A stretch of DNA of 64,000 nt from an uncultured virus (IMG/VR IMGVR_UViG_3300020044_008989) (IMGVR_UViG_3300020044_008989:84421-148420), one strand, 5' to 3'. Positions 3,887-28,136 are shown, counted from the stretch's first letter. Notes: generated by a model from the sequence alone, not told the origin. Made by a program: numbers and translations.

Positions 3887-3929
3887 AAAACAACTTGCGC
3901 CCCACAAAATAACCTGCTATATTAAAAAC

Positions 3930-4202
3930 ATGAACAAAGAACCATCCTCCCCTAAGTCCATGACCTGCAAAATTTGGTCCTGCGACAATACCAAAGCTAA
4001 GAAAAACAACTGGCATTTCGCGCCGAAAAAACTGCGCGGGCAAGTGTCGGAAATCGCCCCTAAGATCAAATCCCTAGGCGTGGGAAGTAAGACCTATAAG
4101 CTCGGTCCTTACGAGGGAAGTCTGGAAGAACTTAAGGAATTCGCCCGTATGAAGGGCATGTCTTCCCTAAGTCTCGGATGCGTAAAGATTAAGGTGGCAT
4201 AG
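3930..4202 (+). CDS. Basic hypothetical early protein (start revised to 3930)
   Basis: TTGCGC(3895)-17-TATATT-6-ATG. Confidence 0.8.
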   Translation: MNKEPSSPKSMTCKIWSCDNTKAKKNNWHFAPKKLRGQVSEIAPKIKSLGVGSKTYKLGPYEGSLEELKEFARMKGMSSLSLGCVKIKVA

Positions 4203-4220
4203 GAAAAACCCCTAAGAGAG

Positions 4221-4279
4221 CACCTAGGTTAGCAACCTAGGTGTTCTTTGCACTCCGCAAACTTTTAAACGAGGGGTCC
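4221..4279 (-). ncRNA. Candidate small RNA, GGAC family copy A
   Basis: Reverse promoter TTGCGT(4313)-16-TATAGT; transcript GGACCCCUCGUUUAAAAG... ends in hairpin CACCTAGGTT/AACCTAGGTG (4221-4243). Confidence 0.55.
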
Positions 4280-4393
4280 ATGTACACTATAGAGATAAAA
4301 TCACTGAACGCAAGTAAAAAATAAAAATAAATTCGCGGCGAGAAAAGAGTAATTATTGCTTGATTAGTGTCTGGGCTCTGGTATATTAAACCT

Positions 4394-4573
4394 ATGAATC
4401 CCCCATCACATCCCGTCTCTGATTTGATCATCAAAATTTTGAGCACCAATAACGGCTATTTGTTCGCGCCCTCAGAAAAAGAAATTGACATCGCCAAATC
4501 CCACCCGACAGTGTTTCTTCACGTTTACAACCAGAATCAGGAATTTTTCCCGCATAAAATTTCTCTAAAATAA
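4394..4573 (+). CDS. Hypothetical early protein (start revised to 4394)
   Basis: TTGATT-16-TATATT-6-ATG. Confidence 0.75.
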   Translation: MNPPSHPVSDLIIKILSTNNGYLFAPSEKEIDIAKSHPTVFLHVYNQNQEFFPHKISLK

Positions 4574-4609
4574 ACTTGCGCGGCAAATAAATCTGTGGTA
4601 TAGTATCTT

Positions 4610-4819
4610 ATGAAACAACTAATCGCCCTCGCTAACGACAACCTTGTAATGGAACCCTTGGATGCACTCGCTACAGCTTGCGCCATCCTAGGCGGGAACA
4701 TTGAAGCTCCTAGTATTTATCAGGATGACAGCGATGAACTCTATAGGGAAGTCTCCTATGATGGTAAGAAATTTCCCGTGTCCTATAGCGGCGAGCAGTG
4801 GGAAAGCGGCTGGATTTAA
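4610..4819 (+). CDS. Acidic hypothetical early protein
   Basis: TTGCGC-17-TATAGT-5-ATG. Confidence 0.8.
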   Translation: MKQLIALANDNLVMEPLDALATACAILGGNIEAPSIYQDDSDELYREVSYDGKKFPVSYSGEQWESGWI

Positions 4820-4864
4820 AATAAAACCACTTGACAGCGCGGAAGTCCCGCGCTATATTGTCCC

Positions 4865-4996
4865 AGCGAACAACTTCAGCTAGGGCGGCAAAAAAGGCCC
4901 GCGAATACCCTAGGTAGAATTTGCAGACGCTTAATTTTAAGGGATGGCAACTTGACGTTTAGACTAGTACGTGTTCCCTTAGACTTATCTGTCTAG
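4865..4996 (+). ncRNA. Candidate structured ncRNA behind a consensus promoter
   Basis: TTGACA(4831)-17-TATATT with no ATG at the start site; stems CTAGGG/CCCTAG, AAGGGA/TCCCTT, TAGAC/GTCTA. Confidence 0.5.
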
Positions 4997-5013
4997 GACT
5001 CTCGCCCCTCAGT
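4974..5013 (-). ncRNA. Candidate small RNA, family II copy 1
   Basis: Reverse promoter TTGCGC(5047)-16-TATCTT; sequence homologous to 9090-9131. Confidence 0.45.
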
Positions 5014-5128
5014 ACATACAAGATAGAGAGAAAATGAGGCCGCGCAACTATTAATTGATATTATTTTTACGCGGCGAAAAAAAGAGATTGGCCGTTGACA
5101 GAGAGATTATTCTGTGATATTGTAAACC

Positions 5129-5362
5129 ATGAAACGCTACACACACAAAGCACTCGAATCAGACGTTGAAGCTCTTAACGCTAAGCTGGCGGAGAAAGGC
5201 CATTCTATGCGCTTCATGGTGGGCGCTCGTTATGGGTACTCGGCTATTGACCTCGCTACGGTTGAACAATTGGCGCGGCATTGCTGCCAGCGTAATCTTG
5301 ACAGCGGTACGCCTCGTGAATGTCTCGCCGCTTGCCATTCTTACATGGCCAATAATTTGTGA
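5129..5362 (+). CDS. Hypothetical early protein
   Basis: TTGACA-17-TATTGT-5-ATG. Confidence 0.8.
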   Translation: MKRYTHKALESDVEALNAKLAEKGHSMRFMVGARYGYSAIDLATVEQLARHCCQRNLDSGTPRECLAACHSYMANNL

Positions 5363-5403
5363 AAACAGCTTGCGCATCTCTTAACCCTCGCCTATATTAT
5401 TCC

Positions 5404-5562
5404 ATGCTTACAAGAAAAACATTCATCGCCGTCGCCGCCACCGTTTTAGCCATCGCCGATAAAAACGAGCGCGAAAAACAGGCAAATTTCCAAGCTCAAA
5501 TTTTCGCCGCCAGCAATCCCCGATTTGACAAGGCTCGTTTCCTTTCCGCTTGTGGACTCTAA
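5404..5562 (+). CDS. Small phage early protein (start revised to 5404)
   Basis: TTGCGC-17-TATATT-5-ATG; C-terminal NPRFDxxRFxxACG motif that I recall from uncharacterised phage early proteins. Confidence 0.85.
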   Translation: MLTRKTFIAVAATVLAIADKNEREKQANFQAQIFAASNPRFDKARFLSACGL

Positions 5563-5659
5563 GAAAAACCCATGATTATTCTACTGATTATAATCGGCGC
5601 TCTCGTTTTAAAGTGAAGAAAAAACTTGCGGGCGAAAATATTCTGTGATATAATAAGCC

Positions 5660-5890
5660 ATGACACAAATCGCTTACAATCAAGTCACCGACTTTCTTCA
5701 ATCTCTGCGAGAAAATAGCTCAGTTTGCATTGAAAAATACGGTTACGTCATTCGCCTAGAAGAGCGGCTCGACGGAGGCTCTCACCTAGGGAAAACTATT
5801 AACGTACATCTTGGCAATGATTCGTTGAACAATTGTCTTTTGGATTGCGAGGCTATCGCGAAAGATAGTGGAAGAAAATTGACAAAATAA
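5660..5890 (+). CDS. Hypothetical early protein, paralog of 1..267
   Basis: TTGCGG-17-TATAAT-5-ATG; internal homology. Confidence 0.85.
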   Translation: MTQIAYNQVTDFLQSLRENSSVCIEKYGYVIRLEERLDGGSHLGKTINVHLGNDSLNNCLLDCEAIAKDSGRKLTK

Positions 5891-5925
5891 CTTGCGGCCC
5901 ATTAATTTCTCTGCTACATTCTCCC

Positions 5926-6114
5926 ATGACAACTCAAAAACAAATCCGAGATTCTTTCTGGGAAATCAATGAACAATGGGCCGACGCCAGACGTTCGCGT
6001 AAAACCCATAATGACTACAATTCAACAATCCGATGCGCGTTTGTCGATTATGTGGATTCCCTAGCCAAAAGCGGGAAAATCTCTGAAAAGCTTGCAGATA
6101 GAGTGACGCTTTAA
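5926..6114 (+). CDS. Small early protein
   Basis: TTGCGG-17-TACATT-5-ATG; its transcript would continue into the tRNAs. Confidence 0.85.
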   Translation: MTTQKQIRDSFWEINEQWADARRSRKTHNDYNSTIRCAFVDYVDSLAKSGKISEKLADRVTL

Positions 6115-6122
6115 TAACTTTC

Positions 6123-6204
6123 CCTAGTATGGCGTAATTGGTAGCCGCCACCCGCTTAAGACGGGTGATCGAAAGGTGTCTCGGTTCGAGTCCGAGTACT
6201 AGGA
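6123..6204 (+). tRNA. tRNA-Leu (anticodon UAA)
   Basis: Acceptor CCTAGTA/TACTAGG, anticodon arm ACCCG-CTTAAGA-CGGGT, long variable arm, T arm CTCGG-TTCGAGT-CCGAG, discriminator A, no encoded CCA. Confidence 0.92.
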
Positions 6205-6215
6205 CTTTCCCTTAT

Positions 6216-6292
6216 GTTCCTGTAGCTCAATTGTATAGAGCGCCGTCCTTCTAAGACGGGGGTTATAGGTTAGAATCCTATCAGGAACGCCA
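6216..6292 (+). tRNA. tRNA-Arg (anticodon UCU)
   Basis: Acceptor GTTCCTG/CAGGAAC, anticodon arm CCGTC-CTTCTAA-GACGG, T arm ATAGG-TTAGAAT-CCTAT, 3' GCCA. Confidence 0.92.
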
Positions 6293-6348
6293 GTTTAAAA
6301 ACTGAAAAAATCAGTTGCGCCCCATAATTTTCTGGTTTATTGTTCCCC

Positions 6349-6594
6349 ATGAAAATTCCCCACTACGACAAGCGAGACGGCCAAAAAGATTCGGCCCTTG
6401 GATTTAAAACGATTCGTGAAATCATGGGCTTGCCATGGAATCGCGGCCTTTCGCGCTGCATTGAAGGATGTTCGCTGGATCACAAAAAAGAACTCTCCCG
6501 CCTAAAAAGAGAAGCAAAAAAGAACGGCGAAACAATTCTCGCAACTATTTTTCACAACTACGCGGCGGAAATTTTGGTGGAAAATACAAATTGA
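6349..6594 (+). CDS. Hypothetical early protein (start 6349)
   Basis: TTGCGC-17-TATTGT-5-ATG. Confidence 0.8.
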   Translation: MKIPHYDKRDGQKDSALGFKTIREIMGLPWNRGLSRCIEGCSLDHKKELSRLKREAKKNGETILATIFHNYAAEILVENTN

Positions 6595-6631
6595 TACTTG
6601 CGTGGCGAAAAATAATCCGCTATATTGTTAC

Positions 6632-6817
6632 ATGAAAAAACAATACGGGACATTTACAAAAGAGGCCGATGGGCGCTTGTCTGGTCATGTCATTATTATT
6701 AATTCAGTGAGGAAAGATGGAAAGTACGCAGTAACGCACGCTTTCGCTACTAGCGGGAAAAGAATCAACAAAGTGTACACAAAAGAGCAACTAGAGGAAC
6801 AAATCAGCAAAATCTAG
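6632..6817 (+). CDS. Hypothetical early protein (start 6632)
   Basis: TTGCGT-17-TATATT-5-ATG. Confidence 0.8.
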   Translation: MKKQYGTFTKEADGRLSGHVIIINSVRKDGKYAVTHAFATSGKRINKVYTKEQLEEQISKI

Positions 6818-6851
6818 TTGCGCGCCCTTCTAATCTCTGCTATATTTTCCC

Positions 6852-7007
6852 ATGCAAACAACTCCCCTCTTCAAAGTCGTTAAAGTCATGCGAGTCTCAG
6901 GCCGCCGTCAAATCTTAGAGAAAAATCTCACTGAGTCGGAAGCCCAAAGGTGCGTGGGGAGATTCCCTAATTCGTCGCGGTCAATGGTCGTGTATTTCCG
7001 ACAGTAA
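6852..7007 (+). CDS. Small early protein, 51 aa (not in ORF track)
   Basis: TTGCGC-17-TATATT-5-ATG; MQTTPLFKVVKVMRVSGRRQILEKNLTESEAQR... Confidence 0.8.
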   Translation: MQTTPLFKVVKVMRVSGRRQILEKNLTESEAQRCVGRFPNSSRSMVVYFRQ

Positions 7008-7022
7008 TACCTAGTCCAACCA

Positions 7023-7089
7023 CCTAGTCAGAGCCTAAGAACTTTGACTAGGAAATTTTGCGCCCGAATATTTTTTAAACGAAGGGTCC
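7023..7089 (-). ncRNA. Candidate small RNA, GGAC family copy B
   Basis: Reverse promoter TTGATT(7123)-17-TATGTT; GGACCCUUCGUUUAAAAAAU...; hairpin CCTAGTCA/TGACTAGG. Confidence 0.55.
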
Positions 7090-7202
7090 ATGCTAACATA
7101 TCACAGAATAATTCCAGAATCAAGAAAAAAGAAAATTAATTTTTCGGTGCGAAAAATAGATTCGCCGCTTGACAGTCTAAACTTTATCTTGTATATTCTC
7201 CC

Positions 7203-7436
7203 ATGAACATTCCAGAAACGTTTGCTAACAAAGGATGTATTTTAAATCCAGAAAACATTGCATCATGGGTTAAAGAGGAAATTGACGCTTTCGGCATTAA
7301 AAAAGCAAAACAAATTTTCTCTGAAAGGGCTGACAGGGTTAAAGCCTTGATTCCTGATTGGGTTAAATACGTTTCGGCTAGTTTTGAGCCTTTCTATTGG
7401 CAAGCTGAAAAAATGTGGAGAGACGCAGCAAAATAA
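7203..7436 (+). CDS. Hypothetical early protein
   Basis: TTGACA-17-TATATT-5-ATG. Confidence 0.8.
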   Translation: MNIPETFANKGCILNPENIASWVKEEIDAFGIKKAKQIFSERADRVKALIPDWVKYVSASFEPFYWQAEKMWRDAAK

Positions 7437-7472
7437 TTTGCATTCATTTAATCCCTCGCCTATAGTACCAGC

Positions 7473-7682
7473 ATGAACAAAATCATCACCTCTTATTTTC
7501 GCCCGAATAATCTTGTTGCTACTGAAATTGAAAATATTTCTCCGCGTGTTTTTGCTCTTATGAAAAACATTTCAGAAAATTTCTATGATTTTAATAACGG
7601 CGAAAGGCGGAGATTCGAACATCGTGACCTAGGCACTAAGGAAAATATGGAAAAATTGTTTTCTGACCTAGAAGCGGCCTAA
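7473..7682 (+). CDS. Hypothetical early protein
   Basis: TTGCAT-17-TATAGT-6-ATG. Confidence 0.8.
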   Translation: MNKIITSYFRPNNLVATEIENISPRVFALMKNISENFYDFNNGERRRFEHRDLGTKENMEKLFSDLEAA

Positions 7683-7876
7683 ATAACTTTCTTATGAGTG
7701 ACTTCGACAAATATATGATTTCCCTAGGTTATCGCCTACATGAAAATGGGCAAACTTGGATTTCATGGTAAACTTTCTTAAACACCAAATACTATAGCGT
7801 CCTAAGAACCAATGGCGCGTGAATAGGTTATTCTCCTAGGGTCAAAAGCTCTAGGGGATTTTTGCTCGCCGCAGGG

Positions 7877-7926
7877 CATCCCTACGGGATAATCTTAGGG
7901 GTGTTTCTTAACACAATGAAGCGTCC
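7877..7926 (-). ncRNA. Candidate small RNA, GGAC family copy D (diverged)
   Basis: Reverse promoter TTGACA(7960)-16-TATATT; GGACGCUUCAUUGUGUUAAG...; hairpin 7877-7903. Confidence 0.5.
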
Positions 7927-8038
7927 ATGTACAATATACAGAATAATTTGCCGCTGTCAAATTAAAAACAAAAAAATATTTCGGAGCAAAAAACCAACAA
8001 TTAACTTGTTTATATTCTGGGATATGGTAGATTGATTC

Positions 8039-8293
8039 ATGCAAACAAAACAAATCTTCCCGTGGAATGTCAAAATCGGTGACGTACTTGTGATGGGCGG
8101 GCCTTATGGCGGCGAGTCAAATTCTGAGATTATTGCGATCCAGAAAGGGCGCGCTCATTTTTTCCGCGCCACTAAATGGACGTTTTTTGTAAAGGAGCCG
8201 CTTTACATGACCAAGCAATTTTCCTACTATGGCAAATTCATGGCGCAAGGTTTACAGCATGAAGCTGAAAAAGTTAAAATTTTGAAGAAATAA
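8039..8293 (+). CDS. Hypothetical early protein
   Basis: TTGTTT-16-TAGATT-5-ATG. Confidence 0.8.
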   Translation: MQTKQIFPWNVKIGDVLVMGGPYGGESNSEIIAIQKGRAHFFRATKWTFFVKEPLYMTKQFSYYGKFMAQGLQHEAEKVKILKK

Positions 8294-8328
8294 TTTGCGC
8301 GCCCCTCTTTTCTCGCCATATTAACAAT

Positions 8329-8571
8329 ATGAATCACGACACACTCTGGCAAGCCATGAATCAAGTGGAGAAAGAACTCTCAGAATCCCGCGCCATCCCT
8401 GCGGAAGATTGGGCTGAGAAATTCTCCTACGGGGGAATTCCCTACGGCACTAGGAAAGAGGCGCATTTCCCCCTGCTCTCCTACAAGGGCAAGCCTACGA
8501 AAAAATACGGGCACGTCGTAATCGAAAGGCTTGATCGTGGCACCTATGAGGTGGTGGTGTATTGCCTGTAG
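8329..8571 (+). CDS. Hypothetical early protein
   Basis: TTGCGC-16-CATATT-6-ATG. Confidence 0.8.
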   Translation: MNHDTLWQAMNQVEKELSESRAIPAEDWAEKFSYGGIPYGTRKEAHFPLLSYKGKPTKKYGHVVIERLDRGTYEVVVYCL

Positions 8572-8583
8572 TAGTAAGATTAA

Positions 8584-8641
8584 TCCCTAGGGTAGTGCCT
8601 AGGGAATTTTTTCACGCAAAAAGCTTTTAAACTTGGGGTCC
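8584..8641 (-). ncRNA. Candidate small RNA, GGAC family copy C
   Basis: Reverse promoter TTGCGC(8675)-16-TATATT; GGACCCCAAGUUUAAAAGC...; hairpin TCCCTAGG/CCTAGGGA. Confidence 0.55.
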
Positions 8642-8755
8642 ATGTACAATATACTGACAAAACATTCGGGCGCAAGTATTAATTTCATATAATTTCCAGA
8701 ATTAAACTTTGTAGAATAAGCTTGATTAATGTTTAGACCCTGATACTGTACCAGC

Positions 8756-8968
8756 ATGAACGAAATCATTGCAGACACACCCGACAAAATCGCCTTTTTC
8801 AAGCTCTGCTCCCTGCGTGGGGCGCTCCGATTGGAAGCGGCAGGAATGAAATCACGCGGGAAATCCGCCACTAGCATAGCCAAATCCCTAGGCTACAAAG
8901 GAAAAACCGCTGCTGATTTGTATTATGCTGTCAACGCCAAAATCCGAGAGCTTAACCCTATCGACTAA
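8756..8968 (+). CDS. Small basic early protein
   Basis: TTGATT-16-TACTGT-6-ATG. Confidence 0.85.
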   Translation: MNEIIADTPDKIAFFKLCSLRGALRLEAAGMKSRGKSATSIAKSLGYKGKTAADLYYAVNAKIRELNPID

Positions 8969-8975
8969 TCCATCG

Positions 8976-9010
8976 CCCTAGTGGGGAAAGTCTCCTCACT
9001 AGGGAATTTT
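8976..9010 (+). terminator. Intrinsic terminator-like hairpin
   Basis: CCCTAGTG-...-CACTAGGG followed by AATTTT. Confidence 0.6.
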
Positions 9011-9059
9011 CGGGCGATATTTTTGTTGACTTATTCTCTAGGACGTGGTAACTTGTTAT

Positions 9060-9115
9060 GGTCCCCAAGTCTAAAAACCATAAAAGTCCAGATTCCCTTA
9101 GAATTCTCGGTCTGG
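9060..9115 (+). ncRNA. Candidate small RNA, GG(A/U)C family copy E
   Basis: TTGACT(9026)-17-TAACTT; GGUCCCCAAGUCUAAAAACC resembles copy C; stem CCAGA/TCTGG. Confidence 0.5.
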
Positions 9116-9131
9116 CGTCTCGTGCTTCCGT
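9088..9131 (-). ncRNA. Candidate small RNA, family II copy 2
   Basis: Reverse promoter TTGACT(9165)-16-TATGTT; homologous to 4974-5013; convergent with copy E. Confidence 0.45.
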
Positions 9132-9253
9132 GCATATAACATAGAGAGGGCTGAACAATAGTCAAACTATTTCTATTATTAATTTTGAGAAAAAACTTTT
9201 GGCGCGGCAATAAATAATTGTTGATTATAGGGGCGCATGGGTTAGAGTGATAC

Positions 9254-9466
9254 ATGAAAGAAAAATTCACTTTTGAAGTCACGGACACGTTCGGCGGTGA
9301 TGCGAACTACCGCTGGGTACGCAGGCATGAGATTGAAGCTAAATCCCTGCATGGCGCGCTTTGCATTCTTTCGCGCATCGAAGGGCTGAATTTTCGCTCC
9401 GTTGGGTGTGATCGCTATGATGCGCGGGGCGCTTGCATTTGCGCTTTCTTGATAGAGGAATATTAA
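9254..9466 (+). CDS. Small phage early protein (TDTFGGxANY motif)
   Basis: TTGATT-16-TAGAGT-5-ATG. Confidence 0.85.
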   Translation: MKEKFTFEVTDTFGGDANYRWVRRHEIEAKSLHGALCILSRIEGLNFRSVGCDRYDARGACICAFLIEEY

Positions 9467-9508: not shown

Positions 9509-9865
9509 ATGAACAAAATCACCCTCGCCTATCTCGTTTGCGCTCTTTGGTCATCCACACAAGATGATGGTTCGCCTTTCGATGATGATTATGGAGTTGA
9601 CGATTTTCACCCTGATTCTGTAGAAAAAGCAGCGGGCGAAATAAGTGATTTTCTTAGTCTGTTGGAGGCCGAAAATATCCTATGGGAGGAAGAAATGTCT
9701 GAGGAAAGTTTCGGTCATGATTTTTGGCTTACTAGGAATCGTCATGGCGCGGGATTCTGGGACAGAGGCTTGGGAGACCTAGGGAAAAAGCTTACCGATT
9801 GGGCACACTCCTATGGTTCGTCGGATGTTTACTTAGGCGATGATGGGAAAGTGCATTTGTCCTAG
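9509..9865 (+). CDS. Acidic phage early protein (GHDFWLTRNxHGAGFWD motif)
   Basis: TTGCGT-17-TATAGT-5-ATG; motif recalled from uncharacterised phage early proteins. Confidence 0.88.
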   Translation: MNKITLAYLVCALWSSTQDDGSPFDDDYGVDDFHPDSVEKAAGEISDFLSLLEAENILWEEEMSEESFGHDFWLTRNRHGAGFWDRGLGDLGKKLTDWAHSYGSSDVYLGDDGKVHLS

Positions 9866-9929
9866 CGGAAAGTAAATAATTGCAATTAAAAGTTGCGCGC
9901 CAGTTTTCTCTGTGCTATCTTGTCAGGCC

Positions 9930-10175
9930 ATGAACGAAAAAATCTTTTCCATCCTCTCCAATATGTTTCCAGGTTTGCCAGTCGAAAAAGCAATCGGAGA
10001 AAATGCCAAGCAAGTACGTTTTCTTACTGATACGCATGAATGCAGCATTACCGTTTTCGAGCCTAGGAATAATACTGAAGACAAAGACTTAGCCACTCAG
10101 AAGAATTATTCTAGGAATGATAATGATATTGTCTGGCTTGGCAACGTAAGATTTTCCGCCACCAATCGCATTTAA
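9930..10175 (+). CDS. Hypothetical early protein (start 9930)
   Basis: TTGCGC-17-TATCTT-8-ATG. Confidence 0.75.
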   Translation: MNEKIFSILSNMFPGLPVEKAIGENAKQVRFLTDTHECSITVFEPRNNTEDKDLATQKNYSRNDNDIVWLGNVRFSATNRI

Positions 10176-10192
10176 CCCGTCAAATACCCTAT

Positions 10193-10459
10193 ATGAAATC
10201 CCTATCCCTCCGCTATCGTGTTTTCTCTGTCTCCTACGTCCCCGCGACAAATACTCGCCCATGTAGGGTAAAAATTAAAGACTGCCGCCGAAATGTCTCT
10301 AGGATTATCAACTATGGCGCAAATAATAATCCAGGGGAGGATTTGGAAATAACAGCGCGCAAATACTTGCTTTCCCTAGGCATCGAGTGTCAGGCGCTAG
10401 GGATGTGTGAGAGGGATTTTTTCCTGCTGTCTGAGGATTTCATGACCCCCCTCTCCTAA
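10193..10459 (+). CDS. Phage early protein (YxxxTNTRxxRVK motif)
   Basis: ORF co-oriented downstream of 9930. Confidence 0.8.
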   Translation: MKSLSLRYRVFSVSYVPATNTRPCRVKIKDCRRNVSRIINYGANNNPGEDLEITARKYLLSLGIECQALGMCERDFFLLSEDFMTPLS

Positions 10460-10590
10460 CGAGTGACTAGGTGGCTCCCCTATAGAGGTTCTTAGGGGCG
10501 GGCTCTCGTTTGTGAGAATAATTATTTTTTATTCTTCGCCAAAAGATGTTTTTTCGTTTGAAGGGTGAAAATTTATCTGGTATATTGAGA

Positions 10591-10762
10591 GCGGAAAGAG
10601 ACGCGAGCGGGATAACAAGTACCCGCAAGATCGGCAAGCCTCTTGTCCCTGCCCACATATGGCCTTGATCTCGCGTAGCGAGTTAGCCAGACCGCTAGCA
10701 AGATCACGCCTTTTTAAAGGCGTTGCAATCCGCGCCCATCACTAACGAGGGGCGCGGATAAA
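10591..10762 (+). ncRNA. Structured 5' leader/ncRNA of the last early operon
   Basis: TTGAAG-17-TATATT promoter, ~190 nt before next ATG; stems ACGCGAG/CTCGCGT, GCGGG/CCCGC, ACGCCTT/AAGGCGT, ATCCGCGCCC/GGGCGCGGAT. Confidence 0.6.
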
Positions 10763-10780
10763 CAACGTAATTTTAAGATC

Positions 10781-10987
10781 ATGACAAAAAAAGAAATCAG
10801 ACAAACGGTTCAAGATGAGATTGCACTCGAAAAAGCTGAATTCCAAGCAGCACGCGCAGAGTTCTATCATGAGTTTTCCATGCATGGCGGGGATGGACCT
10901 TGGAACAACTATGGCGAAGATGAACCGCAAGAAAAGTACGTCCCCCGTCCCGCAGTTTACGCCAGCCCATCAAATTCGCCCTTTTAG
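10781..10987 (+). CDS. Hypothetical protein
   Basis: First ORF after structured leader. Confidence 0.7.
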   Translation: MTKKEIRQTVQDEIALEKAEFQAARAEFYHEFSMHGGDGPWNNYGEDEPQEKYVPRPAVYASPSNSPF

Positions 10988-11066
10988 CTTTCCCGCCCTG
11001 CCTAGCGCTTCATGCGTTAGGCAGTGGGGAGCGCTAATGCTCCATTAACAACTAAAAACAAAAGAC

Positions 11067-11426
11067 ATGAACCTAACCCAATCCGATAAGCTAGCCATCC
11101 AAACAATCCTTTCCGCAGGCCATGAGGAAAGCGCGGAATCGTTCGAGCCGCTCGAAAGCAGCCCGCGTTTCGATTATTCTGCTATTCGTGATCGAATAAA
11201 CGGTTACGCGCCCCCTGCCCCCCGTAACTATGCGCCAGCATACGAAGCGGAAGAATCCCCAGACATTGGAGAGGATGAAGGGGATGAAGAGCTTGAAAGC
11301 CTCCTGCGCTCCTTTGCTCGCGACAAGCAAGGGCGCGAAGTCTCGCCCGATTTCCTCCCTTCCATGCGTAACCGTGGCGCTATTCGTGCCGAGCTTTCCA
11401 GCATGGGTGTGTCGTGGGGCGAGTAA
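11067..11426 (+). CDS. Acidic low-complexity hypothetical protein
   Basis: ORF with A-rich SD-less 5' region. Confidence 0.75.
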   Translation: MNLTQSDKLAIQTILSAGHEESAESFEPLESSPRFDYSAIRDRINGYAPPAPRNYAPAYEAEESPDIGEDEGDEELESLLRSFARDKQGREVSPDFLPSMRNRGAIRAELSSMGVSWGE

Positions 11427-11484
11427 GTATTCCACCTATGATCACACTACTCTTTATCCTTATTATCTTAGGGGCCATTATCCT

Positions 11485-11586
11485 ATGATTAACGAGTTCC
11501 TTTCTATCCTCTCTAATGCCTCCCCCTATGAGTTAACCCTCATAGGGGGGGCAGTCCTTTCCCTAGTTACCCTCCAGTTCACCTAG
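11485..11586 (+). CDS. Small putative membrane peptide
   Basis: MINEFLSILSNASPYELTLIGGAVLSLVTLQFT; hydrophobic. Confidence 0.5.
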   Translation: MINEFLSILSNASPYELTLIGGAVLSLVTLQFT

Positions 11587-11587
11587 T

Positions 11588-11761
11588 ATGCCATCAATCT
11601 TTTCCCTACTGCATAGGGATTCATGGGGTTTCCGCCTATGCGATACCGTAGGCGAGGCCCATTACCTCCTGAGTCGAATGACTAGGGAGGGCTGGTCAGA
11701 GGATAGGTACTCTGACTACTATACGCACGAAAGACACGAGTGGTTGCGCGCTCGCATCTAA
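11588..11761 (+). CDS. Small hypothetical protein (57 aa)
   Basis: ATG 1 nt after previous stop. Confidence 0.5.
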   Translation: MPSIFSLLHRDSWGFRLCDTVGEAHYLLSRMTREGWSEDRYSDYYTHERHEWLRARI

Positions 11762-11826
11762 GGACCATCACATGCCCGCTAGGCGATTCCCCTAGCCTAG
11801 CGGGTCAACGTTAGGGGATTTTACCT

Positions 11827-11940
11827 ATGGAATACCTACTCGCCTCACTGATCGCTTCCCTACTTCATGAGGGCGCGCCCTTGCCAGTGGCTACGGCCAC
11901 CGCTTATTACGAGCTAGGGTTTGACATGGCGATTGCCTAG
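11827..11940 (+). CDS. Small hydrophobic protein (37 aa)
   Basis: MEYLLASLIASLLHEGAPL... Confidence 0.45.
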   Translation: MEYLLASLIASLLHEGAPLPVATATAYYELGFDMAIA

Positions 11941-12048
11941 TCACTGCCTCGCCTATGGGGCGCGCATCGCCTCTGATGCGCGCCCTCCCTTCCATCGTTT
12001 GCCTAGTGCCTCACCTGCATGAAGTAGGGGCGGCACTATCACCAGACT

Positions 12049-12264
12049 ATGAAACCATCTTGTCCCTACGGGACGTACCAACGTGCCATTAGTGGCCTTC
12101 ACTTAAGCCAGATCACCCCGCGCTTACTAGTTAGGCGTATTCACGCTAGGCTAAACGGCCCTGCGCGCAAGCTTCACAAGTTCAGGGAAGCGAGGCATTC
12201 CCTTATCAGGGGGGCATTCGAACACCTAGAGGAGGACAAGCAAACGTTTAGGATGTGCTCCTAA
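12049..12264 (+). CDS. Basic hypothetical protein
   Basis: ORF track; co-oriented. Confidence 0.65.
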   Translation: MKPSCPYGTYQRAISGLHLSQITPRLLVRRIHARLNGPARKLHKFREARHSLIRGAFEHLEEDKQTFRMCS

Positions 12265-12282
12265 CCCATCATCATATTACCT

Positions 12283-12453
12283 ATGAACGACCTATACCAA
12301 GACGACTTCGCTTCTAGTGATCTCCCCTCATGCTGGTACGATTACTACCTAGACATGAGGACTAAGCAGTACTGTACCCACTCAGAGGCTTACCTAGCCA
12401 CTAAGCAGGAGATGGAGTACGCCCACTTGCTTAGCTCTATGGGCATCCCCTAG
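12283..12453 (+). CDS. Small hypothetical protein (56 aa)
   Basis: MNDLYQDDFASSDLPSCWYDYY...; last + strand gene of the early block. Confidence 0.55.
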   Translation: MNDLYQDDFASSDLPSCWYDYYLDMRTKQYCTHSEAYLATKQEMEYAHLLSSMGIP

Positions 12454-12775
12454 GGGATGCGACCCCTCTATAGGATAGATACCTATCAGGGGATTAGGGC
12501 TGGACTAGGTAGGATGACTAAGAGGGTGGCCATTTCCTTAAAAGATTGACCTAGGTAAAACGCCTATGGCGGCGGGGGGTAGTCTTTATACTTCTCCCGA
12601 ATTATTTTCGTAGAATGGCTGTGTCGATCTTTATGTTGCCCTACAGTCTATCTACTCTCTTATACCCCCCCCCCAATAACAAAAACAATTAGAAAAGTCT
12701 GAAATAAAAACCACAAGCGTTTCTAAAAAAATACGCGGCGGTTATTTTCCAGGATGACTTTCTCAAATCTGAGAA

Positions 12776-20598: not shown

Positions 20599-20802
20599 AT
20601 GAAACTTTCAGAATACGCTAAAAAACAAGGATGTACAAAACGGACTGCGTGGGCGCATTTCAAGAAAGGCTTGATCGAAGGAGCTTATCAGACGCCGAGT
20701 GGAAGGATAGTGGTCCCCGATTCGCCCGAAGTTAAGAATAAAAACGCCGTCGTCATACTTTTTTCTGGTAATATTGACGAACTGATCGCAAAATTACAAT
20801 GA
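20599..20802 (+). CDS. tnpA: IS607 TnpA N-terminal HTH; serine recombinase domain absent
   Basis: MKLSEYAKKQG...TAW.HFKKG.I..AYQTPSGRIVV; only 67 aa. Confidence 0.85.
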   Translation: MKLSEYAKKQGCTKRTAWAHFKKGLIEGAYQTPSGRIVVPDSPEVKNKNAVVILFSGNIDELIAKLQ

Positions 20803-21968
20803 TTCGCTCTGCGCCAACGTCTCTTAAATTTGCGAATACTGGCAAACGCCAGCAGGTCGCGAAGTTTTTGATTGAATATCGGCGTGTGCTAAAATTTTTC
20901 GTTGGCAAATTTTGGAACGAGGAAAAATTGCAAAAATTTGGAGACTCAAAATGCGAAAGCTGGCTTTCTGCTCGCGCCAAACAATGTGCGGCAAAACAAG
21001 CAGTTGGAATCGTTCGCTCTGTTAAGAAAAAGCATTCGTCTCGCGCTTTTGTGATCAAGCGAATGAGGGGCGAAGGCGACCATCTTAATGCGGATCGGTT
21101 GCAGGCGATTCAAGATGCTAGCGTTTTAACAATGCCAGAAATTACTAATGCCAATGCTGAACTTGACTCTCGCTTTTGTAAAATTAACGTAGAAACATCT
21201 GGGCATTTTGATATTTGGCTAAACCTTTCGTCTCTTGGTGAAAAGGCCAAAATTAACCTTCCTCTTCGTAAGACAAAGACGTTCAACAAGTGGTCTAGCA
21301 CTGGCGAAATTCGCTCAAGCATTCGCCTAAACGAAGGAGAAGTGACGTTTTTCTTTGAATATGAGACAGAAAAACGCTCTGGTTCAACGCTTGGCGTTGA
21401 CATCGGCCTTAAGAAAACGTTTTCAACATCATCTGGTGCTCAAACTCAAATTGATGCCCATGGGCATTCTTTGCAAACAATTTGCGAGAAGTTGACGCGC
21501 AAAAAGAAAGGTTCGAAAGCTTTTCGACGGGCACAGGAGCATCGTAAAAATTATATTCGCTGGTCCGTGAACCAGTTAAACCTCTCTGGTGTGAGCGAAG
21601 TTCGCCTAGAGGATATTAAAAATTTACGCAAGGGTAAGGCGACCTCCGCTTTACTTTCGCGTTGGAACTACGCAGACATCTTTGGGGCGCTATCCCTGAA
21701 ATGCGAGGAGCTTGGCGTCCAAGTAACTCGTGTTCAGAACGCCTATACAAGCCGAAGATGCAATGCGTGCGGTTGGACAGAGAAACGCAATAGAAAAGGC
21801 GAAACGTTTAAATGTCGAGAATGCGGGCATTCCGCAAACGCAGACATAAACGCCGCTAAGAACATTGCGCTAAACCTTTCTATTGAAAGGTGTCCAAACC
21901 TTGATCAGTTTTACTGGTCAAAACAGGAGTTTATAGTCCCTGTCGCAAGAAAAGCTGACGTAGAATAA
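20799..21968 (+). CDS. tnpB: TnpB / Cas12f-like RNA-guided endonuclease
   Basis: RuvC GVDIG (D), VRLEDI (E), NADINAAKNI (D); zinc finger CxxC...CxxC. Confidence 0.93.
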   Translation: MIRSAPTSLKFANTGKRQQVAKFLIEYRRVLKFFVGKFWNEEKLQKFGDSKCESWLSARAKQCAAKQAVGIVRSVKKKHSSRAFVIKRMRGEGDHLNADRLQAIQDASVLTMPEITNANAELDSRFCKINVETSGHFDIWLNLSSLGEKAKINLPLRKTKTFNKWSSTGEIRSSIRLNEGEVTFFFEYETEKRSGSTLGVDIGLKKTFSTSSGAQTQIDAHGHSLQTICEKLTRKKKGSKAFRRAQEHRKNYIRWSVNQLNLSGVSEVRLEDIKNLRKGKATSALLSRWNYADIFGALSLKCEELGVQVTRVQNAYTSRRCNACGWTEKRNRKGETFKCRECGHSANADINAAKNIALNLSIERCPNLDQFYWSKQEFIVPVARKADVE

Positions 21969-24986: not shown

Positions 24987-27900
24987 ATGGGATGGGCACA
25001 AGGCTTGCAGCCAGAGAAGCGCAGCGGACACGTTAATAAAGAACTTGCCGAAGTAAAGGGCTTTCTTGAGGAGAAGGACGCCAAACTTTGGTTGGAAAAA
25101 TTCTTTAGAGAAAACCTTGGACTGCTCTCCAAAATTCTTACGGGCGTGGAATTGTTAGAGTTCCAAAGCATGATGATCAAGGCGATGTTCAATGTTGACT
25201 ATTTCCTTGCTATATGTAGTCGTGGCAGCGGAAAGAGCTTTATTTGTGCCATCTTTCTTATCTTGTACGCATCTTTAAATCAGGGAATTAAGATTGGGAT
25301 CATCGCAAATTCATTTCGCCAAGCTCGGCTCTTAATGCAAAAGATCATTGACTTAAGGCAAGACCCAAAGGCCAAATTCTTAGCTCAAATGATTACAGAC
25401 AAGGATATTTCCTTGAAGAACGATGAGTGGGTGATTCGGATTGGCCGTAGTCAATTAATATGTTTACCCACAGGAGATGGCTGCCTAACTCTTTCATCCA
25501 GAACGACTTACGGCGATTCTGGCATAACTAGATTTGCCGACGTTTTCCCGAAAGATATTGATTTGATTGTTGACCATCAAGAATTTTCTTCCGATAAGAA
25601 GATTTGGTCAAATGGCAAATTCCGCACCAGCGATCAGCAGTTTTACAACGGAATTAGAGACACTAAAAGACTAACCACTAAAAGAGGTTTTCAAATCGAA
25701 TCCACGCTAAATCACAAATTTAAGTGTGTCGAGAATGGTAATATTGCTTGGAAAGAAGCGCAGAATTATGTTATTGGTGACAATATTATGATTGATAAAA
25801 GTGTTCGCTGGCATAGTTCCGACACAGAGTTGACCGAGAATGAGTGTTATGCGTTCGGGGCTTTAATTGGAGATGGGTGTTTTGGTAAGGCGAGTGCCGT
25901 TGGTTTTGCGACCCATGATGAAGGAATTATGGACAGGGTGAAATTGGGCACTCCGTTTAAATGGACTCAATGCTCCGACAAAGTTCATTGGCATGGTGGA
26001 GGTGGAGATGAATTGAAATTTAAATACTTAGAAAAATTTAATTTCAAGGATGAGTCTTCATGGAAAACCAAAGACAAACATATTCCCATCCCAGTTCTTC
26101 GCTCTTCCAAAAGTAAAATGTCCGCTTTTATTCGCGGGCTTATGGACACAGATGGCAGCGTCCAGACGCGATCTGACAATGGCAAGGGTTCTCACACACA
26201 GGTATCGTTCTTTAACACATCAGAGCGTCTAATCGACGATCTTCAATACGTTTTACTTCATTATGGAATTGTGTCGAATAAAATATCTCGCCAACGCACT
26301 CATGATAAAAGAGTTGGAGATGTGAATTGGAGTAAATCTTATGAGCTTTATATTAGCGGAGAAAACGTCCTAACGTATGCTAATGAGATTGGTTTTGGAC
26401 TTAAAAGAAAACAAGATACCCTAAATCGTGGTATAGCCAATAAAACTCGATGGATGTCTATTTCTTATGATTCTGTTCCAGTAAACATTAATCTTTTGGA
26501 GGACATTGCTGAAAAATCTGCCCTCCCAAACAAGAGGATGGCTTTCGCTGGCATGGCGAATTTAAGAAGGAAAAAGATTATTACAAAATCTCAACTTAGA
26601 CTCTTTATTGAGAAGTATGAGTTATCTGGAGACGTTAGGATTGAAGGATTGAAACAGCTTGTTTCTGATGGCGTATTTTTTGACTCAATTTCCAGCATCG
26701 AAGATTCCAAAGCCCCAACTGCTGATCTTCACGTCCCAGATGGACACGAATACTGCGCCAATGGATTTTTCTCTCACAACTCCAAGCTTCGCGGTTATCG
26801 CTTTAAGGTAATGGTTATTGATGAGCTTCTTCTTCTTAGTTCTAAACTCATTAATGAAGTTATTCGCCCGTTCCTATCCACCAACACCGATGTCACGGAG
26901 AGAAAAAAGGTGCGCGAGGCCGAAGATATTCTTGTGTCCCAAGGTAAACTGGAAGATAAAGACAGAATCCAATGGGGCAATAATAAATTAATTGGGTTAT
27001 CTTCGGCGTCCTATTCTTTTGAATATCTCAAGACGATGTATGACGAATACGAGAAGGCAATTTTTGAGAAGAGAGCGGATAATGCAAAATATAGCATCTT
27101 CCACATATCCTACGATTGTTTGCCAGCGGAACTTTATGACCAAGCTCTTATTGCGAGCGCCAAAGCTCAAATGAGTGAAGCTCAATTTGGGAGGGAGTTC
27201 ATGAGTCAATTTACAGATGATAGTTCTGGTTATTTTAAAATGTCCAAGATGATTGCCTGTACATATTCGGACGGAGAAGGACAGCCTGTGGAAGCCATGG
27301 GAGAAAAGGGCGCTACTTATATTATTTCTGGAGATATTAGTTGGTCGGAGTCAGACGGTTCGGATGATTTTGTTTTTCATGTAATCAAATATTTCAGAGA
27401 AACGGATATTGGCGTGGTAGTTCATTCTTATGCGCTCCCAGGAACCGCCATGAAAGAGCATATCAAGTATTTCCACTTTCTCTATAAAGCGTTCAGTCCA
27501 GAGTTGATTATTTTCGACTTTATGGGCGGCGTTCAGTTTTTATCGGCGGCAAATGAAAGTGAATTATTTAAGACTGATGGAATCGAAATTAAAACTATTG
27601 ACGTTGAAGTAGAAGACCCCACTAAATATCAAGAGGACTTAAAATCTATTCGCAATATCCATAATCTATCTGATAATAGAATTTGCATACAAAGAAAACC
27701 ATCTGGTAACTTTATTCGTCAGGCGAATGAAATTCTTCAGGCAGCGTTTGATCATAAAAGGCTGATGTTTGCCTCTATGGCGATAGATGATGATTTCGTA
27801 AAACAAACGTCTATGCCCGTGCCAGTGAATGATTTAAAGTTCTTGCGGGAAACTATGACTATTAAACAGAATTCCGTAGATTTTGTGGAAAACCTCAAAG

Positions 27901-28136
27901 ACAACATTAATATGATAAGAACTCAATGCGCTCTTATCGAGGTTGCCAGCACCCCACAAGGGAATCAAACATTTGATTTGCCGCTCAATTTAAAAAGACA
28001 GAGAGGTTCTGGGAAAGCGAGAAAGGATAGTTACTCGGCATTAGTCTTAGGAAACTGGGGCTTACAAATCTATCGGGATATGATGGCAACCCCTAAAGAA
28101 GACGACTACGGAACATTTGAGCCATTTATTTGTTAA
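24987..28136 (+). CDS. terL: Terminase large subunit containing an intein
   Basis: SRGSGKS Walker A, LRGYR..MVIDE Walker B, LSSA, C-terminal RNase H-like nuclease (KDSYSAL); upstream of portal. Confidence 0.93.
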   Translation: MGWAQGLQPEKRSGHVNKELAEVKGFLEEKDAKLWLEKFFRENLGLLSKILTGVELLEFQSMMIKAMFNVDYFLAICSRGSGKSFICAIFLILYASLNQGIKIGIIANSFRQARLLMQKIIDLRQDPKAKFLAQMITDKDISLKNDEWVIRIGRSQLICLPTGDGCLTLSSRTTYGDSGITRFADVFPKDIDLIVDHQEFSSDKKIWSNGKFRTSDQQFYNGIRDTKRLTTKRGFQIESTLNHKFKCVENGNIAWKEAQNYVIGDNIMIDKSVRWHSSDTELTENECYAFGALIGDGCFGKASAVGFATHDEGIMDRVKLGTPFKWTQCSDKVHWHGGGGDELKFKYLEKFNFKDESSWKTKDKHIPIPVLRSSKSKMSAFIRGLMDTDGSVQTRSDNGKGSHTQVSFFNTSERLIDDLQYVLLHYGIVSNKISRQRTHDKRVGDVNWSKSYELYISGENVLTYANEIGFGLKRKQDTLNRGIANKTRWMSISYDSVPVNINLLEDIAEKSALPNKRMAFAGMANLRRKKIITKSQLRLFIEKYELSGDVRIEGLKQLVSDGVFFDSISSIEDSKAPTADLHVPDGHEYCANGFFSHNSKLRGYRFKVMVIDELLLLSSKLINEVIRPFLSTNTDVTERKKVREAEDILVSQGKLEDKDRIQWGNNKLIGLSSASYSFEYLKTMYDEYEKAIFEKRADNAKYSIFHISYDCLPAELYDQALIASAKAQMSEAQFGREFMSQFTDDSSGYFKMSKMIACTYSDGEGQPVEAMGEKGATYIISGDISWSESDGSDDFVFHVIKYFRETDIGVVVHSYALPGTAMKEHIKYFHFLYKAFSPELIIFDFMGGVQFLSAANESELFKTDGIEIKTIDVEVEDPTKYQEDLKSIRNIHNLSDNRICIQRKPSGNFIRQANEILQAAFDHKRLMFASMAIDDDFVKQTSMPVPVNDLKFLRETMTIKQNSVDFVENLKDNINMIRTQCALIEVASTPQGNQTFDLPLNLKRQRGSGKARKDSYSALVLGNWGLQIYRDMMATPKEDDYGTFEPFIC
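25482..26780 (+). mobile_element. Intein with LAGLIDADG homing endonuclease (433 aa)
   Basis: Starts CLTL after GDG, ends FSHN followed by Ser; TLNHKF block B; GALIGDG and FIRGLMDTDG motifs. Confidence 0.95.

Follow-up and report, generated by a model that had tools for sequence, protein, structure and literature searches.

The last 64 kilobases (kb) of a 148-kb uncultured virus record from IMG/VR (IMGVR_UViG_3300020044_008989:84421-148420; hereafter the window) hold five short promoter units, A to E, at the downstream end of an array of small early genes. Each unit is predicted to yield a non-coding RNA that starts with GGAC or, in unit E, GGTC. On the sequence evidence assembled here we favour, tentatively and with slightly less than even confidence, the reading that the units are dedicated collision-partner promoters, which would strengthen transcription termination at the distal end of an early array that is heavily transcribed. 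Positions are those of the window unless genome positions are specified.

The argument draws on the distances between the units and neighbouring terminators and on published E. coli data. In a scan of terminators from the virus and related contigs, the antisense start lay 34-38 nucleotides (nt) past the end of the sense stem at 12 terminators (one of them in the distantly related contig L091) and at 68-71 nt at three more. The stems of those 12 are unrelated in sequence and include a CCTAGG type and several GC-rich types. If release is assumed to occur 7-9 nt past the stem, the active site of the sense polymerase would lie 25-31 base pairs (bp) from the antisense +1. In cryo-electron microscopy structures of head-on collided E. 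coli RNA polymerases, 26, 29 and 31 bp separate the active sites (PMC13082048). Single-molecule experiments on bidirectional terminators found that read-through was prevented only with head-on collision, that trailing polymerases greatly raised release, and that the nascent stem-loop positioned the collision (bioRxiv 10.1101/2022.10.23.513370). Because the predicted spacing matches the structural distances, and in the light of these collision-termination data, the units look like dedicated collision partners.

The proposed mechanism would operate on a composite cassette consisting of a sense terminator, a GG-start promoter, an AT-rich spacer of fixed length and the next leaderless sense promoter. 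A host sigma70 RNA polymerase, located at the antisense promoter or just leaving it, would meet the sense polymerase head-on at the U-tract of the terminator, and the collision would stall sense polymerases and block read-through. Dense sense traffic would supply the trailing polymerases, and the short pppGGAC... RNA (~60-80 nt, antisense to the terminator region) would be the product of the guard promoter. Unit E, and face-to-face promoter pairs found in related contigs, would realise the same idea with two opposed promoters. Transcription from dozens of unterminated promoters feeds the array, and at its distal end the cassettes would together make up a stop zone of several layers.

Start geometry and conservation of the units

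The early array consists of ~70 small + strand genes at genome positions 55-94.5 kb, and the five units occupy its last 6 kb. A promoter scan of the array gave 66 promoters with an ATG at most 10 nt past the -10 box, and 64 of these have the form TTGNNN, a spacer of 16-17 nt, TAnnnT and an ATG 5-6 nt further on. Because the ATG sits at this distance, the predicted messenger RNAs (mRNAs) of the array should be leaderless. All four - strand units and the single + strand unit were found where the original prediction had placed them, and -35 and -10 boxes of the sigma70 type were located at every one (Table 1). Unit E is the sense-oriented member and stands after a sense terminator.

The ATG of the units is closer to the -10 box than that of the genes (gap of 3-4 nt versus 5-6 nt), as had been claimed. 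Spacer and gap together measure 20 nt in all five units, versus 21-23 nt (25 in one case) in 26 nearby leaderless genes of the window, none of which has 20 (Fisher p = 5.9e-6); the -35-to-ATG distance is thus exactly 2 nt shorter in the units. The first G of GGAC falls 5-6 nt past the -10 box, the position taken by the A of the ATG in the 64 regular leaderless promoters. This geometry, along with the retention of GGAC in copies that have no ATG (below), supports well the predicted initiation on GG, and the unit transcripts most likely start there and exclude the AUG.

Within the 148-kb genome, the four occurrences of the 14-mer TNNNCATGGACSCY are all on the - strand and fall within a stretch of 4.4 kb; a reversed control pattern does not occur. 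The conserved head of the transcript is predicted to be unpaired in four of the five window units. Single-sequence folds gave no structure past the terminator hairpins, with z ranging from -3.1 (unit A) to +0.1 (unit E).

Relatives were gathered by a metagenome scan with a neighbour protein of 80 amino acids (aa), by protein search and by exact look-ups. In contigs L087-L090 and L097-L110 the neighbour proteins are 73-94% identical to those of the virus; L091 is more distant (48%). These related metagenome contigs contain ~50 further distinct units, or 40 representatives once near-duplicates were removed. Judged by them, the family is multi-copy, as proposed; it is real, conserved and much larger than its five window copies. 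When only an antisense consensus promoter was specified in the scan, 16 of 19 such promoters in L097 were followed by (GT)NCATGGA(C/G) and 12 of 15 in L098 by (GT)NCATGGAC, i.e. CATGGAC; sense promoters in these two contigs were followed by ATGAAN at a gap of 5-6 nt.

Searches further afield yielded little. Exact scans of IMG/VR with two patterns for the head gave no further carrier. One head match, in a 73-kb contig, is single-copy in that genome and probably due to chance. A viral-contig scan with a 70-aa neighbour gave no match, and the motif was absent from two distant portal relatives with long contigs (G002 and G003); a third, G001, probably does not cover the early region. Rfam matched only two transfer RNAs (tRNAs), both with the whole window at gathering threshold and with positions 3900-9400 at E<=1; the family, which had not been recognised in the original prediction, is thus not in Rfam.

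Would-be peptides of 14, 18, 6, 14 and 28 aa (units A-E) are unequal in length, as first described, and early stops, truncated orthologues and copies without ATG mark the units as non-coding. Among the open reading frames (ORFs) of 50 distinct units, whose lengths range from 3 to 31 codons, 16 stop at codon 4 and 25 have five codons or fewer. Orthologues of units B, C and D, assigned by synteny, read MDP* or MDA*, and the rest of their sequence can still be aligned. The reading frame of the units is not conserved in relatives, as would be expected of leaderless protein-coding genes of this array. Several relatives' units have ACG or CT in place of the ATG and keep GGAC at position 6-7 past the -10 box; examples read GTCAC-GGAC, GTATCT-GGAC and ATCTT-GGAC, and L091 has ATCTT-GGAC and ATTCCT-GGAC. 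Because copies without ATG retain GGAC, the conservation is assigned to this predicted transcribed element, which continues as (C/G)C(C/T) in the close clade, and not to the start codon.

A reading of the units as leaderless micro-ORFs, transcribed from the A of the ATG and encoding peptides that begin MD(P/A), could appeal to the very good conservation of ATGGAC, to the leaderless nature of the true genes in the array, and to a loosely similar pattern, MDxxFKxxxxxKxP, in the 14-aa ORFs of units A and D and of some relatives. The stops at codon 4, the orthologues cut to 3 aa and the copies lacking an ATG altogether led us to set it aside. The A of the ATG is moreover 2 nt too near the -10 box by comparison with real leaderless starts (64/66), and a manual reading of unit E against its orthologue gave substitutions without third-codon-position bias. 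We consider this explanation extremely improbable.

Across the 40 representatives, the first 4-7 transcribed bases are nearly invariant amid randomised promoter spacers. At most ~7 nt are universal, with C or G at position 5, and L091 retains only GGA(C) of the head. The copy at 7928 (GGACGCT...), which had been described as diverged, is not decayed: GGACGCY is the second main head variant in the relatives. The idea of a constant 5' end joined to a freely variable body, as in a guide RNA, was not supported, since only GGAC(S)C(Y) is constant and the remainder is an A/U-rich linker plus the sense terminator. Likewise, no constant hairpin of repeat length, such as a CRISPR-repeat-like element or an RNA anti-CRISPR would have, is common to the copies, in which only the first 4-7 nt are constant; their hairpins are of differing types, CCTAGG or GC-rich, and form part of the sense terminators.

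Other interpretations of the units were considered and rejected on inspection. Resemblance to a T7/SP6-like promoter on the + strand is limited to unit A, and a Shine-Dalgarno sequence with ATG on the + strand is missing from the GGACGC units. No covariation was seen for a terminal GGAC:GUCC stem. A CATG methylation switch was discarded as GGAC is retained in copies without CATG, and a cyanobacterial LexA box was rejected by inspection.

Table 1. Promoters, predicted transcripts and sense terminators of units A-E, with neighbouring promoters (window positions; boxes on the - strand are given from high to low coordinate).
Feature	Position	Strand	Details
Unit A promoter	4286..4313	-	TTGCGT 4313-4308, spacer 16, TATAGT 4291-4286, gap GTAC; ATG A 4281, first G 4279 (ATGGAC)
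Unit B promoter	7095..7123	-	TTGATT 7123-7118, spacer 17, TATGTT 7100-7095, gap AGC; ATG A 7091, first G 7089 (ATGGAC)
Unit C promoter	7933..7960	-	TTGACA 7960-7955, spacer 16, TATATT 7938-7933, gap GTAC; ATG A 7928, first G 7926 (ATGGAC)
Unit D promoter	8648..8675	-	TTGCGC 8675-8670, spacer 16, TATATT 8653-8648, gap GTAC; ATG A 8643, first G 8641 (ATGGAC)
Unit E promoter	9026..9054	+	TTGACT 9026-9031, spacer 17, TAACTT 9049-9054, gap GTT; ATG A 9058, first G 9060 (ATGGTC)
Unit A predicted transcript	4203..4279	-	starts GGACCCC; crosses complement of sense terminator; ends at second small hairpin and U-run near 4203-4211
Unit B predicted transcript	7015..7089	-	starts GGACCCT at 7089
Unit C predicted transcript	7830..7926	-	starts GGACGCT; crosses hairpin 7869-7887 and sense terminator 7832-7858
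Unit D predicted transcript	8572..8641	-	starts GGACCCC at 8641
Unit E predicted transcript	9060..9133	+	starts GGTCCCC at 9060; runs into opposing promoter
Sense terminator of gene 3930-4202	4221..4251	+	stem 4221-4243, tail TTCTTT; stem end 36 nt from unit A start
Sense terminator of gene 6852-7007	7023..7060	+	stem 7023-7052, tail AAATTTT; stem end 37 nt from unit B start
Sense terminator upstream of unit C	7832..7866	+	stem 7832-7858, 11 bp, tail TTTTTG
Sense terminator of gene 8329-8571	8584..8613	+	stem 8584-8605, tail ATTTTTT; stem end 36 nt from unit D start; flagged on - strand too
Sense terminator before unit E	8976-9004	+	stem just after stop codon
Next sense leaderless promoter after unit A	4360..4387	+	-35 46 bp from unit A's -35
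Promoter facing unit E	9138..9165	-	TTGACT-16-TATGTT; predicted start 9131-9133; ~72 bp from unit E start

Terminators, spacings and competing explanations

The closing hairpin attributed to each unit is present, but in most units it is better assigned to the upstream sense gene. In the 9 nt flanking the hairpin, a per-unit scan counted on average 4.8 T on the sense-tail side and 2.4 on the antisense side; because the T-run lies on the sense side, the hairpin is taken to be the intrinsic terminator of that gene. A bidirectional terminator would be expected to have an A-tract upstream and a U-tract downstream of the stem in both directions; the T-run is good on the sense side and weak on the antisense side, and on the - strand terminators were flagged only at unit D and at the second hairpin of unit A. 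Of 33 terminator-type units, 25 have a hairpin that starts between +35 and +40, with an A-run before it. RNAalifold gave no consensus structure for 23 terminator-type units, the hairpins being too different to align.

The last 6 kb of the array contain five sense terminators; each has its stem just after a stop codon, and each is accompanied by a unit. At units A, B, C and D a stem-loop separates the sense gene from an antisense consensus promoter that points towards it. Terminators are missing from most of the cassettes further upstream, so that the first terminator with a unit is fed by many promoters. Both in this virus and in L091, the units are concentrated where the leaderless array has its downstream end.

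A second fixed distance separates the units from the next sense promoter. The -35 boxes of the two lie 45-46 bp apart at units A, B (7169), C (8006) and D (8722), and across the units this distance is 35-36 or 45-46 bp, or, in one case read by eye, 56 bp; these classes are about one helical turn apart. Fixed as they are on both sides, towards the terminator and towards the next sense promoter, the spacings point to a cis-acting architecture of DNA or transcription.

Trans-acting sibling small RNAs (sRNAs) would best explain the invariant head. Here the unpaired 5' end, GGAC(S)C(Y), extended in many copies to ..GTTTAAAAA, would serve as a handle or seed, bound by a host or phage protein or paired with a host RNA, and the A/U-rich linker and shared terminator hairpin would complete the sRNA body. 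Near-invariance of the first 4-7 transcribed bases amid randomised spacers implies selection on the transcribed sequence, and the unpaired head in four of five window units and the many copies fit as well. The layout of constant 5' part, A/U-rich stretch and hairpin resembles that of Hfq-type sRNAs with 5' seeds. Against this, the poor U-tail on the antisense side of the hairpin (2.4/9) makes defined 3' ends doubtful, the universal part of the head is short and in L091 shrinks to GGA(C), the phage genome shows no enrichment of sequences complementary to the head, the Rfam searches of the window gave no sRNA match, and the fixed distances to terminator and next promoter are not predicted. We regard trans-acting sRNAs as possible and yet doubtful. 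A more novel proposal, in which the transcripts that begin with pppGGAC form a class of phage small RNAs of their own and act in trans through the invariant 5' end, seems to us unlikely. They might then, for instance, lure away a host factor or a defence that reads the 5' ends of RNA, or offer a handle to an early protein of the phage, and their placement at terminators would be merely an economical way of ending RNAs. Decoy, sponge or anti-defence roles, as first suggested, are conceivable.

The predicted transcripts would also pair without mismatch with the terminator region and any read-through RNA, and could act as cis-antisense regulators of early mRNAs. Paired with the sense transcript, at its 3' end or in its read-through portion, they would tune mRNA stability or read-through, either through double-strand-specific cleavage or through antitermination by blocking the terminator hairpin. 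The oop RNA of lambda and the sar RNA of P22 are phage precedents, and the face-to-face pairs of the relatives would yield fully complementary RNAs of ~57-60 nt. When sense termination is normal, however, the overlap comprises only the hairpin and tract, the predicted RNAs of units B and D stop short of the upstream coding sequence and that of unit A only touches the stop codon; neither the invariant head nor the spacing is explained. This regulation is in our estimate decidedly unlikely.

Gene order near the units differs among the window, L097 and L098, with homologous cassette ends; window segments 9253-9466 and 9509-9864, for example, stand in the opposite order in L097. Tracts of 50-70 nt with ~80-87% identity are common to non-orthologous units. 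The terminator/promoter blocks might accordingly provide homology for the shuffling of one-gene cassettes, with no function of its own for the antisense promoter, much as the composite promoter/terminator motifs termed PeSLs mediate cassette exchange in T4-like phages (PMC4122927). Recombination homology would be expected to keep long tracts; instead, the spacers are randomised and 7-10 nt around the start, together with the spacings, are fixed, and PeSLs have no antisense promoter. Mobile cassettes of this kind are an improbable explanation of the units.

Several points weigh against the collision-partner reading itself. Promoter activity, start sites and 3' ends are predictions, and with them the collision and its effect on termination; the sigma70 rules and the spacing match are taken from E. 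coli and may not be those of the host. The canonical sense terminator of unit C lies 68 nt from the start and not 36. The main exception to the pairing of terminators and units is a strong sense terminator 14.2 kb ahead of the window (genome positions 70,226-70,251), which directly adjoins the next leaderless promoter (both within 70,226-70,290) without any unit; units are therefore not obligatory at terminators, and terminators that do have a unit beside them do not look weaker than this one. A collision partner needs just a promoter, so the invariance of GGAC(S)C is unaccounted for, as is the phasing of the next sense promoter at 35-36 or 45-46 bp. Finally, the constant spacing could stem in part from common descent of the cassettes.

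Face-to-face promoters and the surrounding genome

A second form of the units occurs in the relatives: past a sense terminator, two GGAC promoters, first a sense and then an antisense one, point at each other, with the predicted starts 57-60 bp apart and an invariant TCTCA...TGAGA palindrome midway between the promoters. L097 has six to seven such pairs between successive early genes (9600-12500), and the form was also found in L098, L090 and L101. In place of a leaderless start, several genes downstream of face-to-face pairs carry a conserved leader (GGGCAGTCGAAA...). By its layout, unit E with its opposing promoter is the window's version of this form.

Another convergent pair without ORF lies elsewhere in the window, with TTGACA-17-TATATT (4831-4859, + strand) opposite TTGCGC-16-TATCTT (5047-5020, - strand) and starts ~150 nt apart. 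It is conserved in L097, L098 and L109, where the - strand start reads AATGGACTGAGGG, and its folds are not unusual. Further downstream, a promoter-like TTGAAG-17-TATATT precedes a leader of ~190 nt before the gene at 10781 (window 10558-10780); this leader folds far better than shuffled sequences (-70.7 kcal/mol, z = -5.3) and has no Rfam match.

The virus record encodes a large terminase with an intein, a portal protein, a tape measure protein of 2,288 aa and tail genes. The portal has no relative among phage isolates, a look-up of it in a protein atlas led to viral clusters only, and DNA similarity between phage isolates and the record is limited to tRNAs. None of the 30 early proteins tested matched Pfam. 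Genes for tRNA-Leu(TAA) and tRNA-Arg(TCT) lie within the leaderless array (6123-6292). The terminase is split by an intein that carries a LAGLIDADG endonuclease domain (24987-28136), and a TnpB-like gene with a Cas12f1-like TNB domain (20799-21968) had no close relative in the prokaryote genomes searched.

Restriction sites are extremely depleted throughout the genome (G000, window included). CCGG was observed 0 times versus ~284 expected, RGATCY 1 versus 138, CCWGG 37 versus 170 and GTAC 112 versus 551. GGATCC, CTGCAG, GAGCTC, GTCGAC, GGCGCC, CCTNAGG, CGATCG, GCATGC, TACGTA, ACGCGT and GATATC are absent or occur no more than once or twice. Such site avoidance suggests a host that carries many restriction systems.

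Significance and comparison with known systems

If the collision model is true, the virus installs gene-less guard promoters so that collisions between polymerases perform termination, which would constitute a compact and portable design for boosting terminators and an example of programmed collisions beyond the convergent genes of E. coli. In a phage with ~70 early mRNAs predicted to begin at AUG, coding and non-coding promoters would be told apart by a 2-nt shift of the start and a G at the start. To our knowledge, no cultured phage has been described with a regulatory grammar of this kind, marked by an invariant GGAC start, helical phasing between divergent promoters and promoters set face to face.

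The oop RNA of lambda and the sar RNA of P22 resemble the unit transcripts in their length of ~70-80 nt, in their constitutive sigma70 promoter and in a direction opposite to that of an early operon. Both are single-copy and overlap the coding or ribosome-binding sequence of one specific target. The phage units, in contrast, are multi-copy, have a 5' end common to all and barely reach the upstream reading frames; no overlap with the coding or translation-initiation region of a target was found, the predicted transcripts of B and D ending short of the stop codon and that of A touching it.

In P2/186-like phages, the lytic promoter and the lysogenic one stand face to face, 40-60 bp apart (PMC7498355). 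Unit E and its partner (~72 bp) and the GGAC pairs of the relatives (57-60 bp) are alike in distance, and the palindrome of the latter could bind a regulator. The phage pairs form no single developmental switch, however, given the six to seven pairs between successive early genes of L097, and both promoters of a pair are predicted to make non-coding RNA.

PeSLs of T4-like phages (PMC2839356, PMC4122927) are likewise small terminator/promoter cassettes between ORFan early genes, in a plastic region where cassette order varies between close relatives, and a terminator with a next sense promoter was found at every unit here. A PeSL consists of one stem-loop and one sense early promoter, whereas the phage units add an antisense or face-to-face GG-start promoter, the phage mRNAs are predicted to be leaderless, and the phage belongs to an unrelated, siphovirus-like lineage.

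In mechanism, the units would resemble the bidirectional terminators of convergent E. coli gene pairs (Wang, Watters, Ju and Liu; bioRxiv 10.1101/2022.10.23.513370; PMC13082048). Common to both are convergent transcription meeting at a stem-loop, heavy trailing traffic on one side and the distance involved, 25-31 bp from the predicted termination point to the opposing start versus 26-31 bp between active sites (PMC13082048). In the phage, the opposing partner is no gene but a dedicated promoter predicted to make a short non-coding RNA; the units recur five times in 5 kb with an invariant start sequence and at a fixed distance to the next sense promoter. Short antisense phage RNAs, face-to-face promoters, collision-type terminators and promoter/terminator cassettes each belong to a known kind. 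What appears new is a guard promoter with a GG start and no gene, present in multiple copies and locked in position relative to terminators and the promoter that follows, and its placement inside what is predicted to be a fully leaderless early array of an uncultured phage lineage.

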